DNA of 64,000 nt. Source: Escherichia phage ECCR664. The position numbers were made by a program, and so were the translations under genes. A model generated the notes under the pieces. That model did not search any database and was not told the origin of the DNA. It saw nothing but the letters and a program-made list of their open reading frames with translations. Positions 1 to 64,000 of the stretch are shown here, one piece after another (the first letter of the stretch is position 1; the number at the start of each line of letters is the position of its first letter). The stretch lies in the sequence record OL631257.1; one strand, 5' to 3'.

Positions 1-335
1 ACGGGCAGAAGGATTAGCGATACGCCTTGCAATGGCATCACGTTTCTCAATAAGTTCTTCTAATGTTAAATCAGAACGAGCAGTGTTATATTTTTCTTAA
101 CTGGGATAACATTACCTTTAATGTAGCCGATATCGTTATTAAAACGTTCTAAGGATAATTTCTCACCTTCAACAGCGTTATTGAAAGATTCACCTGAGTA
201 AGCGCAGACCTTTTGATCAAGAATGTTTTTAAGGTAATTAAAGTCTAAGTTAAAATCCTTAGAGCGTCTCTTCGCAGAAGCTCTGGTGTGGTCAAGACGA
301 CGATTGATTTTGTTAATTTTATTATTTGATAACAT
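1..335 (-). CDS. hypothetical protein; 5' part at 335, frame appears to continue past window start after a shift near 66
   Basis: ORF 66..335 (89 aa); another frame stays open over 1..65 (DLTLEELIEKRDAIARRIANPSAR). Position matches the T4 srd/dda.1 region; no motif recognised. Confidence 0.3.
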
Positions 336-562
336 AATATTTTCCTCTGTCTTACGGACGTTAGGTCATTTAGCTGATAAGCTTATAATATCATGCCCTC
401 AGATAGTGTACACTCTTTTTCATAAAATGCTTTAATTTTTATGTGTTATAATGGTTCTGAGTTCCATCCGGTTATTCCAATCCAGTCAGTAACCGACAAT
501 AGACAGATTCCAGATTGTATAACGTCCATCTTGAATAATAGAATCTACACGCAGTGTAGTCC

Positions 563-1093
563 CTATAGGGAGCATAAATTCACATTCGTCAGATATAAGT
601 CTAGCATTAGACCGTCTTGTCGCTTCAGGAAAGCTCCATTGAACTCACAAGATGGCGCAGCCAGAATCATATTAAGCATATGTTCACGGAAGTTGAAAGC
701 GAATGGTGCATCTTTGACGCAGAACATATTAAATGTTCCGTAAAAATTATACGAAGCAAAGTTACGTGCTACACCGAACACTGGGCTGAAGCTCATTACT
801 CTATCAAATTTAATAATACTACCAACATCTTTATCATCGAGTGTGGCCATAGTTTTCTTAGAGATTCCACGATACATTGTCTCAGGAACAGAAGACGTCC
901 AATTTCTACGAACGATTGAACTTAACTCCTGTTGAATACAGTCTGGCTTGTTTTCCATACACTGCCACAGTACACTTTGTTCAATGTCGCTGAATTGACT
1001 ATCAATTTCGTACTGCAATACATCTTGATATTCGGGGTTTTGAGCACGGCGAACCATTTCCTCAATTTCACATTCATTATACGGCATAAACAT
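563..1093 (-). CDS. ADP-ribosyltransferase, ModA/ModB family
   Basis: 176 aa; YRG ... SFSPVFGVA motifs in the R-S-E arrangement of T4 ModA/ModB; tandem with a paralog; position downstream of soc/56 as in T4. Confidence 0.6.
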   Translation of the reverse strand: MFMPYNECEIEEMVRRAQNPEYQDVLQYEIDSQFSDIEQSVLWQCMENKPDCIQQELSSIVRRNWTSSVPETMYRGISKKTMATLDDKDVGSIIKFDRVMSFSPVFGVARNFASYNFYGTFNMFCVKDAPFAFNFREHMLNMILAAPSCEFNGAFLKRQDGLMLDLYLTNVNLCSL

Positions 1094-1150
1094 TTAGGTT
1101 TCTCCTGTGGTTGATAAAGGTATAGTATCATCGTCGGTAGAGTTTGTACA

Positions 1151-1732
1151 CTAAAAATTCAACATTTTTAAATGAATGATTTTGTATAATCGAGATAAAG
1201 GGTCATATTCTAAGTCTTCAATTTCCACAATCTCAAATCTAGAGATACCCGAGACCATGTACTCTTGTTCAGATTCAATCATATCTAAGACGTCAACACG
1301 TGTTTCTTCCATAACGTGCTTAGGGGTCTTTCCAGCGAGTACAATGTTAACCATGTTTTGGTAGTAATCAAAAATGAATGGAGCATTCCTGAGACTAAGA
1401 ATAGTGTACGTCTGATATTCCCATCTCCCAGAGAATTGACGAGCTGTACTGAAATCAGTTGTGAACGATGTTACTCGTCCAGGAGACCAATGGCATCCAA
1501 CAGAAAGAAGGGAAAGACGTTCTACTTCTTCTGGAGTTACACCACGGTAGAGTTCTACTGGTACTGTAGAAGTCATATGCTTACGAACAAGATGGTCTAA
1601 TTCATAGTGGAAATCCGGGTCTTCCTTAGAATCGGTGCAAGCCCAGAGAATGTTTTGTTCTTGGCGGGTGAATTTGCTATCAATCAGATTTGTTAGGTAT
1701 TCGCGTTCTTGAAGTTCAGATTGACATGTCAT
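1151..1732 (-). CDS. ADP-ribosyltransferase, ModA/ModB family
   Basis: 193 aa; LYRGV ... SFTTDFSTA ... EQEYMV (R / S-x-S / E-x-E pattern); paralog of 563..1093. Confidence 0.6.
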   Translation of the reverse strand: MTCQSELQEREYLTNLIDSKFTRQEQNILWACTDSKEDPDFHYELDHLVRKHMTSTVPVELYRGVTPEEVERLSLLSVGCHWSPGRVTSFTTDFSTARQFSGRWEYQTYTILSLRNAPFIFDYYQNMVNIVLAGKTPKHVMEETRVDVLDMIESEQEYMVSGISRFEIVEIEDLEYDPLSRLYKIIHLKMLNF

Positions 1733-1947
1733 GATAGACCTCCATTTAAAGATAAGCCTATCATAACACGAGAGGAGGGAATGTAAACTACTTTTTAAGC
1801 TTTCCTACTAAAGGTCCATCAGGACCAGGTTGTTCTAACATGAATAACGATGCTTTAAAAAGCAATGTCAACCCTTTCACCATTCGATACCATATCTCAA
1901 AGTCTTTTCCTTGATTTCTAGTAAGAATTTCTCTTTAAATTTCTCTT

Positions 1948-2136
1948 TCATTTCCAAGGACTCCATGGTGGTGGGTCGTCATAATAAGAGGCAAGGTCTT
2001 TCAGGGCTTCGACAGGTAAACTAAAGCCGTGTCGTTGTATAATACTATCTAGTTCATCAACAAGTTCACTACGATGCACTTTAGGAGCCTCAACTTCAGG
2101 CTCGTCAAACATACTCATAAGGTCCATATTATTCAC
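1948..2136 (-). CDS. hypothetical protein (acidic, 62 aa)
   Basis: ORF only; T4 mrh/srh neighbourhood by position. Confidence 0.3.
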   Translation of the reverse strand: MNNMDLMSMFDEPEVEAPKVHRSELVDELDSIIQRHGFSLPVEALKDLASYYDDPPPWSPWK

Positions 2137-2231
2137 CGAGATAAAAACTAGCCGGTTCAGAAAATGTTTCTAGTGCTACACCTTTTGTCTTAAAAATTTC
2201 CAAATAGCTCGTTGCAAATGGATTAAATCTG

Positions 2232-2591
2232 CTAATGATGTAATAAAGTATTTTTGGCAAAATACTTATGGTCCCGCTTTTCAAACAGGTCTAAACGCTT
2301 TTCAGGATTCACATAAACGGCATTTTCCGTAGATTCGTACCCTAAATCCTTTATGCCTTCTTCAAGACTAAACGGAGAATTTTTAGAACGAGTAATAGCT
2401 CCAACTCGCTCTACACGAATTTTGTAACCTTTAGGAATCTGCAATTTGCAGAATTCTTCTACGATATATTGCGGATTATTTAGACTTTTGTTAATGAGAA
2501 TAGCTATTTCTAGTGGAGTCTTATCTTCTACTGGTATATGTTTAAACGACTTGGCTTCAAGCAAATACATTTTAAATAACATAGCATCCAT
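2232..2591 (-). CDS. hypothetical protein (119 aa)
   Basis: ORF abutting the next gene; no motif recognised. Confidence 0.35.
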   Translation of the reverse strand: MDAMLFKMYLLEAKSFKHIPVEDKTPLEIAILINKSLNNPQYIVEEFCKLQIPKGYKIRVERVGAITRSKNSPFSLEEGIKDLGYESTENAVYVNPEKRLDLFEKRDHKYFAKNTLLHH

Positions 2592-2797
2592 TATAATTTC
2601 CTCAATGGTTCACCCATATAAAGTTTTACAATACGTTCGCCTTCAAGTTCGACGAGCTTTTCTTCATGTTTCTGGAATTCTTTAGCCATATTCTCTTCAA
2701 GAACATCCAGCCAATCTTCTGGACCGACACCATCGTCCCAGCTTTTAAACCATTTAACTATCTTGTTCATTCGCAGCTCCCTGAGCTTGAACCACAA
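2591..2797 (-). CDS. hypothetical protein (68 aa)
   Basis: ORF abutting 2232..2591. Confidence 0.3.
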   Translation of the reverse strand: MWFKLRELRMNKIVKWFKSWDDGVGPEDWLDVLEENMAKEFQKHEEKLVELEGERIVKLYMGEPLRKL

Positions 2798-63014: not shown

Positions 63015-63032
63015 ATTTTCCTCACTTAAAGT

Positions 63033-63109
63033 TGGTCGAGACAGAAGGATTCTAACCTTCAACCTACGGATTAGAAGTCCGTTGCTCTATACAATTGAGC
63101 TATGCCTCG
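63033..63109 (-). tRNA. tRNA-Arg (anticodon TCT)
   Basis: Drawn by hand: acceptor CGAGGCA/TGTCTCG, D-arm GCTC-AATTGTATA-GAGC, anticodon arm ACGGA-CTTCTAA-TCCGT, T-arm GAAGG-TTAGAAT-CCTTC, discriminator A, encoded CCA; 77 nt. Confidence 0.8.
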
Positions 63110-63115
63110 AATATA

Positions 63116-63189
63116 TGACCCAGACCAGATTCGAACTGGTAACCTTTCCCTTATGAGGGGACTGCTGCTAACCATTGAGCTACAGGGCC
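63116..63189 (-). tRNA. tRNA with CAT anticodon (Ile2/Met-type); irregular D-arm
   Basis: GGCCCTGTAGCTCAATGGTTAGCAGCAGTCCCCTCATAAGGGAAAGGTTACCAGTTCGAATCTGGTCTGGGTCA: T-arm ACCAG-TTCGAAT-CTGGT and anticodon loop CTCATAA are clear; D-stem 3' strand reads GCAG instead of GAGC and the acceptor has one mismatch, so possibly a sequence error or a degenerate gene. Confidence 0.55.
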
Positions 63190-63423
63190 TAAATAACTTT
63201 CTATTATGAAAGGCACTTTAGAGCACCTTTGGTAATAGAGGATATGAATTAATAATAACACATAATTCTTAAAGCAAATCAACCATTTTAACGGTCGGCA
63301 AAACGATTTCTTCTTCAATATAAGCAAATTCGACACGTTCAACTACACGCAAGAAATCGTAATCGTAGTATTCAGAAGCGTAGCCAAGAATATCAATAAG
63401 ACCTTGAGATATCTCATCGCCTT

Positions 63424-63783
63424 TCACAAAGAACAGGTCGAATACACGTGATTCATCTTCTTCAGATTTATTACCGAGGTCGACTTCGATACCAAAGACC
63501 TTTTAATGAATTCCGGATAAAGCTGGTCTGAGAACAGTCCTTCAACCAAGTATTCATAGATTAAAAGCGAGCAATCACTGAATGGTGTATTACCACAATA
63601 ACGTTCGGCTTTGGTGCTAGAATGACGGCTCTTAAATTTCTTCAAGAGATATTTAAACTGTTGGAGCTCATGCTCTTCCACTTCAAACAATGTTTTGGTT
63701 TTATAGTTGTCACCATCATTTTCATAGGTAGTGACATCAATTACGTAACCCTTAGGAATTGTACTGCCTAAACAAATATTCAT
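63424..63783 (-). CDS. hypothetical protein (119 aa)
   Basis: ORF only; not examined in detail. Confidence 0.25.
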   Translation of the reverse strand: MNICLGSTIPKGYVIDVTTYENDGDNYKTKTLFEVEEHELQQFKYLLKKFKSRHSSTKAERYCGNTPFSDCSLLIYEYLVEGLFSDQLYPEFIKRSLVSKSTSVINLKKMNHVYSTCSL

Positions 63784-63787
63784 TTAC

Positions 63788-63988
63788 TCACCGTACCATA
63801 TTAATGTAATTATATTCAATGCAACGTAATTTCAAAGGATTCTTGAAAATATCATATTCAAGAGGACCTTTTTCTGTTTCAATAAAGAAATCAAAGTTCA
63901 CACTATTAAATTTGCGGTCTTCCCAAAGTAATTTAACCTGTGAAGATGAACGGTCGATGTAAACCTTTTCAACTTCAAAGTGGGTCAA
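63788..63988 (-). CDS. hypothetical protein (66 aa)
   Basis: ORF only. Confidence 0.25.
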   Translation of the reverse strand: MTHFEVEKVYIDRSSSQVKLLWEDRKFNSVNFDFFIETEKGPLEYDIFKNPLKLRCIEYNYINMVR

Positions 63989-64000
63989 AATACCATAGTA

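Follow-up and report, generated by a model that had tools for sequence, protein, structure and literature searches.

The DNA analysed here, called the window throughout, is a stretch of 64,000 nucleotides from Escherichia phage ECCR664 (sequence record OL631257.1). It spans early and middle genes of a T-even phage, which lie on the minus strand, and the subject of this analysis is a large set of one-base deletions in homopolymer runs that split many of these genes across reading frames. In a megablast search of 50,697 phage records, about 150 Mosigvirus (RB69-like) genomes matched the window with 95-99% identity and full coverage, and the search as a whole gave no identical record and nothing closer than about 97%. 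The best annotated match was E. coli O157 typing phage 3 (NC_041863.1), with 97.1% identity. Several records classified as Mosigvirus by the International Committee on Taxonomy of Viruses showed 96-97% identity over the window length and a collinear gene order, as compared within the 64-kb window. Judged from its sequence, the phage itself appears to be a functional Mosigvirus with nothing out of the ordinary, separated from the relatives known so far by ~3% substitutions, most of which are synonymous.

The extent of gene breakage was determined against the homologous 66.5 kb of NC_041863.1 with its RefSeq annotation, and the corresponding stretches of phages ATK47 and p000y served as control relatives. 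The reverse-complemented window was aligned to NC_041863.1 (61,752 aligned columns, 1,901 mismatches, and 170 gaps), and 135 annotated coding sequences (CDSs) of the reference were projected onto it, 122 of which were mappable. A CDS was called broken if it displayed a frameshift or a premature stop after projection. By this definition, 60 of the 122 CDSs are broken in the window. The same pipeline called 5 of 128 CDSs broken in ATK47 and 4 of 127 in p000y, all of them tiny hypothetical open reading frames (ORFs) or boundary differences. A preliminary description of this DNA had reported at least 25 genes split across frames, which was borne out but turned out to be an underestimate. All ten genes that it named (those of gp43, gp41, UvsX, gp46, gp55, NrdD, NrdG, Tk, RegB, and DenV) are broken, and the broken set extends beyond them to gp62, gp40, endonuclease VII, RpbA, Imm, rI, NrdC, Mrh, ModB, and many small ORFs. 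The named broken genes and their contracted runs are as follows, with protein lengths in amino acids (aa) and run lengths given from the relatives to the window.

486..2591, minus strand: modB (202 aa), a 54-aa ORF, and mrh (154 aa), all broken; modB CCC to CC near 629, 54-aa ORF 1905-1908, mrh 2192-2196 and 2251-2255
7149..7396, minus strand: imm, superinfection immunity gene (82 aa), broken; 7292-7295 (5 to 4)
9122..10562, minus strand: gene 41, helicase (480 aa), broken; 10262-10265 (5 to 4), 10460-10464 (6 to 5)
10572..10911, minus strand: gene 40 (113 aa), broken; 10587-10591 (6 to 5), 10852-10854 (G4 to G3 on the coding strand)
10904..12074, minus strand: uvsX (390 aa), broken; 11405-11409 (6 to 5), 11902-11905 (5 to 4)
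14617..15774, minus strand: U32 peptidase-like gene (386 aa), broken; 14787-14791, 15521-15524, 15606-15609
16215..17900, minus strand: GlmU-like gene (561 aa), broken; 16306-16310, 17186-17189, 17893-17897; natural paired indels at 17120-17221
18082..18716, minus strand: KpsF-like isomerase (211 aa), broken; 18280-18283 (5 to 4)
18757..21466, minus strand: gene 43, DNA polymerase (relatives: 903 aa), divided between two ORFs (295 and 685 aa); 20631-20635 (6 to 5) and 20623-20625 (4 to 3), five bases apart
21919..22480, minus strand: gene 62, clamp-loader subunit (187 aa), broken; 21937-21941 (6 to 5), 22039-22044 (7 to 6)
24249..24864, minus strand: rpbA (138 aa) and 45.2 (62 aa), both broken; 24532-24535 (5 to 4), 24815-24819 (6 to 5)
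24919..26603, minus strand: gene 46, SbcC-like nuclease subunit (562 aa), four breaks; 25087-25090, 25332-25336, 25445-25448, 26344-26348
29084..29639, minus strand: gene 55, late sigma factor (185 aa), broken; 29103-29107, 29305-29309 (both 6 to 5)
33062..35343, minus strand: nrdG (156 aa) and nrdD (605 aa), both broken; 33144-33147, 33257-33261, 34886-34889
35340..35812, minus strand: gene 49, endonuclease VII (157 aa), frameshift near the C-terminus; 35365-35368 (5 to 4)
37105..37367, minus strand: nrdC, thioredoxin (87 aa), broken; 37249-37252 (5 to 4)
43576..44557, minus strand: nucleotidyltransferase (328 aa), broken; 43644-43647 (5 to 4)
46412..46713, minus strand: rI, lysis inhibition gene (100 aa), broken; 46670-46674 (6 to 5)
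46966..47545, minus strand: tk, thymidine kinase (193 aa), broken; 47311-47313 (4 to 3), 47099-47102 (5 to 4)
49501..49957, minus strand: regB, endoribonuclease (152 aa), broken; 49745-49749 (6 to 5), 49767-49770 (5 to 4)
52592..53004, minus strand: denV, endonuclease V (137 aa), broken; 52825-52827 (4 to 3)

Two junctions had been described base by base, and each needs an amendment. In gene 43 the loss of one base from an A/T run was correctly recognized, but the T5 run lies at 20631..20635 and not at 20630..20634, and the junction is not a single loss. It contains two one-base losses, A6 to A5 and T4 to T3 (20623..20625), for a net change of -2. In tk the loss in the caaagg string near 47313 is present (site 47311..47313), but a further loss of A5 to A4 at 47099..47102 had been missed. 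The stop codon of the nucleotidyltransferase gene is affected by a 4-nt ATAA difference near 43579 that is probably natural.

The one-base gaps of the window are strongly directional. Relative to NC_041863.1 there are 124 one-base deletions and 30 one-base insertions, and in runs of at least four bases 96 losses stand against 2 gains. The claim that the frameshifts sit at homopolymers holds, as 96 of the 124 deletions fall in runs of at least four bases and 90 of them in runs of at least five. Gaps of two or more bases are at background level. The dependence on run length was obtained by following every reference run with cleanly aligned flanks into the window. About 0.1% of 3-base runs and about 1% of 4-base runs are shorter in the window, and the fraction rises to 18% (coding) and 26% (non-coding) for 5-base runs and to 90% (coding) and 3 of 3 (non-coding) for 6-base runs. 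Both 7-base runs (2/2) are contracted, and so is an A8 run, to A7, in an accessory segment. As a result, the window keeps 10 runs of six or more bases (nine 6-base runs and one 7-base run) compared with 64 in the reference relative.

Contraction is blind to strand but not to flanking sequence. On the coding strand, A runs and T runs do not differ in how often they are contracted (18% and 19% for 5-base runs; 90% and 89% for 6-base runs). Among 5-base runs, those in the contexts AAAAAG or CTTTTT are contracted in 31 of 68 cases (46%) versus 8 of 142 (6%) with other flanks (Fisher p = 2e-11), and this holds whichever way the run is oriented with respect to the coding strand. A codon-phase preference, which would be a sign of recoding, was not found; the contracted runs are distributed 47/26/15 over the three phases, and all runs of at least five bases 129/106/52.

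Do relatives of the phage vary in the same way? Pairwise mismatches among the three complete relatives amount to 2.5-2.9%, and the window differs from them by 2.9-3.1%. In runs of at least five bases, pairs of relatives display 0-3 one-base gaps in balanced directions, whereas the window displays 82-90 against each relative, all in a single direction. The ~20 one-base gaps in each direction that do separate a pair of relatives are nearly all in runs of 1-2 bases, as paired indels within divergent patches. Further evidence comes from 12 additional independent contigs (from ENA and JGI metagenomes, NCBI genomes, and Logan assemblies) whose gp61 or gp44 protein is identical to that of the window. 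The neighboring genes are intact in all of them (gp43 903 aa, gp46 562 aa, gp62 187 aa, and so on). At nearly all of the contraction sites within their range these contigs have the long allele, and no run of at least five bases is longer in the window than in a contig. In total, the long alleles are carried by fifteen independent relatives. At the gene 43 site the 6-base run is present in 6 of 6 independent contigs covering it, and the exact gp43 junction string gave 0 matches in viral, metagenome, and genome collections. Exact look-ups of three truncated N-terminal products, those of gp43, gp46 (161 aa, absent from the public gene collection), and NrdD (159 aa), found none on record among catalogued gene calls. 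None of the collections yielded an identical record or contig. By these comparisons, the short alleles are unique to this sequence.

Not every gap in the alignment belongs to this class. Clusters of +1 and -1 gaps away from homopolymers (17120-17221, 51964-51978, 55536-55667, and 59587-59602) are paired indels within locally divergent patches. Clusters similar in kind and number occur between accurately sequenced relatives; they are natural and should not be corrected. A G3 to G4 "insertion" at 35965 (locus L001, about 29162) was considered as an error of the window and rejected, as ATK47 and p000y also have G4 and only NC_041863.1 deviates, with G3. The 29-aa hypothetical protein annotated at this locus in NC_041863.1 is probably not a real gene.

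The breakage can be undone. Re-inserting one base at 96 contracted runs restores 49 of the 60 broken CDSs, so that 111 of 122 are then intact. Had the frameshifts been real and the genes dead, neutral-looking substitutions would be expected in them. Substitutions relative to the reference in these genes number 1067, 192, and 100 at codon positions 3, 1, and 2, respectively (78% at third positions), and the codon changes comprise 1028 synonymous and 242 non-synonymous ones. There are no nonsense substitutions among them, and no nonsense change accounts for any of the 11 CDSs that are still broken after repair. When four genomes were compared, 710 substitutions occurred in the window alone. Their codon-position profile and transition fraction matched those of the 504-586 substitutions that each relative had to itself, and this spectrum gave no sign of excess substitution errors (for example, linked to base modification) beside the indels. 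Because the window-unique profile equals that of intact relatives, the substitutions appear to be genuine divergence under purifying selection, and the consensus appears to be accurate for substitutions.

The 11 CDSs that escaped automatic repair mostly reflect the same class of error. Near 61321 and 51652, 6-base runs were made by a lineage-specific substitution and then contracted. Other unrepaired sites are a two-base contraction at 43124-43127 (6 to 4) and the CCC to CC change of modB near 629. The automatic procedure also over-corrected one natural paired indel at 55604-55610. The remainder are natural differences in gene ends or extra genes, such as the insertion of a DUF7279 gene by dmd. 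This small gene lies at 7908-8110 between dmd and the next gene, encodes 70 aa in relatives, and is found in several metagenomic and NCBI Mosigvirus contigs but is missing from O157 typing phage 3. It represents natural variation in gene content and not an error.

Run content, and not gene function, predicts which genes are broken. CDSs that contain a 6-base run in the relative are broken in 37 of 42 cases, and those lacking such a run are intact in 57 of 80 (p = 2e-10). The large essential genes that were left intact (gp61, gp44, gp45, gp47, and gp42) contain no 6-base run.

Taken together, the frameshifts are almost certainly not in the phage and would instead reflect a consensus sequence in which homopolymer lengths were systematically under-called. 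The preliminary description had likewise attributed the indels to sequencing or assembly errors, and its attribution is supported by their direction, length dependence, strand symmetry, and sequence context, by the prediction of breakage from run content, and by the selection, uniqueness, and repair results. In this model, nearly every run of six or more bases would have been read one base short at the base-calling or consensus step, together with about one-fifth of the 5-base runs (and about half of those in AAAAAG or CTTTTT). The outcome would be ~100 spurious one-base deletions in 64 kb (~Q28, about 1.6 errors per kb), splitting about 57-60 genes. A homopolymer read-out that saturates with length, rather than mutation and selection, is indicated because contraction is near-exclusive, sets in at a threshold of 5-6 bases, is symmetric between strands, depends on k-mer context, ignores coding status and essentiality, is unique to this sequence, and is reversible.

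Several points weigh against under-calling. Its support comes from the nucleotide sequence and is indirect. Individual sites could be real, given a background of 0-3 per comparison among relatives. The few losses in runs of 3-4 bases or of two bases (629, 43124-43127, and 20623-20625) are somewhat unusual for a pure length-threshold model. Finally, T-even DNA contains glucosyl-hydroxymethylcytosine, and this modification usually makes nanopore base-calls at C less reliable when native DNA is read. An excess of substitution errors would then be expected and is not seen, which fits nanopore sequencing of native DNA less well and argues for amplified DNA, a different platform, or an effective consensus correction of substitutions.

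Which platform could produce such a profile? The error profile, its uniqueness to this sequence, its independence from coding status, and its reversibility were observed directly, and an unpolished Oxford Nanopore R9-type long-read assembly fits them best, with moderate confidence, because the loss saturates at 5-6 bases, the bias toward deletion is near-total, the context dependence is k-mer-like, and substitutions are otherwise accurate. A possible but unlikely alternative is an artefact of the same kind from flow-based sequencing (454 pyrosequencing or Ion Torrent), in which the saturating signal of long homopolymers is under-called. In its favor, the errors of the window are confined to homopolymers and become commoner in longer runs, its substitutions are accurate, and the absence of modification-related substitution errors in hydroxymethylcytosine DNA would be natural for sequencing-by-synthesis. 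However, a flow-based consensus at normal coverage usually resolves 5-6-mers and shows over-calls as well as under-calls, whereas in the window contraction affects 90% of 6-mers and expansion essentially none, and the strong dependence on flanking bases is more typical of k-mer or signal-based calling.

A computational origin, such as a simulated error model, an imperfectly re-expanded homopolymer-compressed assembly, or faulty polishing, is very unlikely. The profile is indeed very regular, with a near cap at length 5, though nine 6-base runs and one 7-base run survive. Simple simulators would not give flank-dependent losses of 5-base runs or the graded rates of 1%, 18%, and 90%, and a failure of homopolymer compression would also alter runs of 2-4 bases.

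It is extremely unlikely that the deletions are real and that the window derives from a defective or hypermutated phage population, non-viable or decaying, for example one copied by a slippage-prone polymerase or exposed to a frameshift mutagen of the acridine type. Homopolymer runs are indeed targets of replication slippage and of intercalating mutagens (the Streisinger model), and the window holds no direct evidence against the physical presence of the short alleles. True slippage, however, lengthens runs as well as shortening them (+1 and -1), and it would not reach saturation at 90% in 6-base runs with only 1% in 4-base runs. About 57 genes would have been lost, including those of gp43, gp41, gp62, gp46, and gp55, yet the substitutions in these very genes display strong purifying selection and include no nonsense changes. 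Pseudogenisation would show in a ratio of non-synonymous to synonymous substitution rates (dN/dS) close to 1, in nonsense substitutions, and in indels of varied type and size, and these signs of relaxed selection were not found in the window. Coding and non-coding rates are equal, and neither the three truncated products nor the junction string that were looked up occur in other assemblies. A variant in which the short alleles are physically present in a T-even lineage or population with nearly all A/T runs of at least six bases contracted, surviving by genome-wide compensation (for example, realignment of the polymerase or RNA polymerase on A5/T5 runs), is scarcely credible.

The idea that the frameshifts are real and decoded by transcriptional slippage or programmed ribosomal frameshifting, as in the poly(A) tracts of some insect endosymbionts, can practically be discounted: the shifts are located on A/T runs, a substrate of transcriptional slippage, but efficient slippage needs runs of 8-9 or more and those remaining in the window have only 4-5 bases, contraction is as frequent in intergenic runs and a stable-RNA gene as it is in coding DNA, coding-strand T runs are hit as much as A runs with no codon-phase preference, and no shift is common to any relative, hence there is no conservation.

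Besides the named genes, contracted runs are found in srd and in hypothetical ORFs, outside protein-coding genes, and in an accessory segment that is absent from the main reference.

91..63504, minus strand: srd and hypothetical ORFs, first group of contracted runs; 91-95, 2937-2941, 6254-6258, 8567-8571, 9012-9015, 14536-14539, 28767-28770, 28786-28790, 29815-29818, 29875-29878, 30236-30240, 30601-30605
srd and hypothetical ORFs, minus strand, second group; 30801-30805, 30909-30912, 31001-31004, 31205-31208, 31322-31326, 32744-32747, 32896-32899, 35997-36001, 36543-36547, 36590-36594, 38682-38685, 39412-39415, 39465-39468
srd and hypothetical ORFs, minus strand, third group; 41441-41444, 41484-41488, 41756-41760, 41766-41770, 41796-41800, 42011-42015, 43124-43127 (6 to 4), 45260-45263, 51111-51114, 51406-51410
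srd and hypothetical ORFs, minus strand, fourth group; 54467-54471, 55247-55251, 55776-55780, 55969-55972, 56909-56912, 57492-57496, 57944-57948, 59339-59343, 60762-60766, 61539-61543, 63501-63504
416..62470: contracted runs outside protein-coding genes; 416-420, 436-440, 4242-4245, 9117-9120, 15774-15778 (7 to 5), 28146-28150, 46379-46382, 61262-61265
43234-43237: non-coding G run (G5 to G4 on the coding strand)
62468-62470: run inside an rnaC-like stable RNA gene (T4 to T3)
61600..62400, minus strand: accessory segment; five one-base losses relative to Shigella phage SSE1 (T6, T6, A5, A8, and G5)

The five losses in the accessory segment are all in runs and split a 202-aa hypothetical gene. 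Mosaic accessory segments at 61631-62338, 60460-60749, and about 52024-52470 are absent from the three main reference genomes. The first of them matches Shigella phage SSE1 and JS09-type phages with 98% identity, and in those phages it encodes a 202-aa hypothetical protein. ARAGORN called a 94-nt tRNA-Stop (anticodon tta) at 62409-62502, within a homologue of T4 rnaC (species 1) at 62409-62547 on the minus strand. This stable RNA is annotated in ATK47, where ARAGORN does not call the tRNA, and the candidate in the window falls below the Rfam tRNA threshold. The call is probably a spurious tRNA-like hit and not a suppressor tRNA. The tRNA genes proper are located at 63033-63189 on the minus strand; there are only two, Met-CAT and Arg-TCT, as in O157 typing phage 3 and ATK47, and p000y has a cluster of ten tRNA genes at this location.

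The relevance of the frameshifts is one of data quality only. Gene models, proteins, and any claims of pseudogenes, split genes, introns, or recoding made from this sequence are unreliable before polishing, and about half of the proteins predicted from it, being truncated or chimeric, would contaminate protein databases. The phage is otherwise ordinary and its genus well sampled, and the sole value of the feature is that of a quality flag with a quantified error profile for repairing the record. The same profile, in which ~90% of 6-base runs, ~18% of 5-base runs, and ~46% of AAAAAG/CTTTTT runs are contracted, is a recipe for flagging and repairing such records.

How does the window compare with known systems? 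The Mosigvirus records (O157 typing phage 3, ATK47, p000y, JS09, and SSE1) resemble it in their collinear gene order and content, in 96-97% identity, and in a substitution pattern of normal divergence. They differ from it in that the same genes are intact and the runs one base longer at ~100 positions. The poly(A) frameshifts of insect endosymbionts occur in tracts of about 9 or more bases, are conserved between strains, are confined to genes, and are rescued by transcriptional slippage. The window shares with them shifts at A/T homopolymers in otherwise conserved genes, but its runs have 4-5 bases, the changes are present in one sequence only, and intergenic DNA is equally hit.

A close likeness is to Oxford Nanopore R9.4-type long-read-only assemblies, although the modification-linked substitution errors expected for glucosyl-hydroxymethylcytosine DNA are not seen. 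Such assemblies have homopolymer-focused, deletion-biased errors with frameshifts that can be corrected from homologues, and ~1.6 errors per kb is within the unpolished range. In Oxford Nanopore consensus sequences, systematic homopolymer indels survive read-based polishing, giving frameshifts and fragmented gene calls, and homologous genomes or short reads allow them to be corrected (PMC8011154, PMC9262707). Phage assemblies show such errors as well, for example in a DNA polymerase gene with two frameshifts (PMC10438801). With high confidence, the frameshifts of the window are sequencing artefacts of a known class and not a real biological feature.

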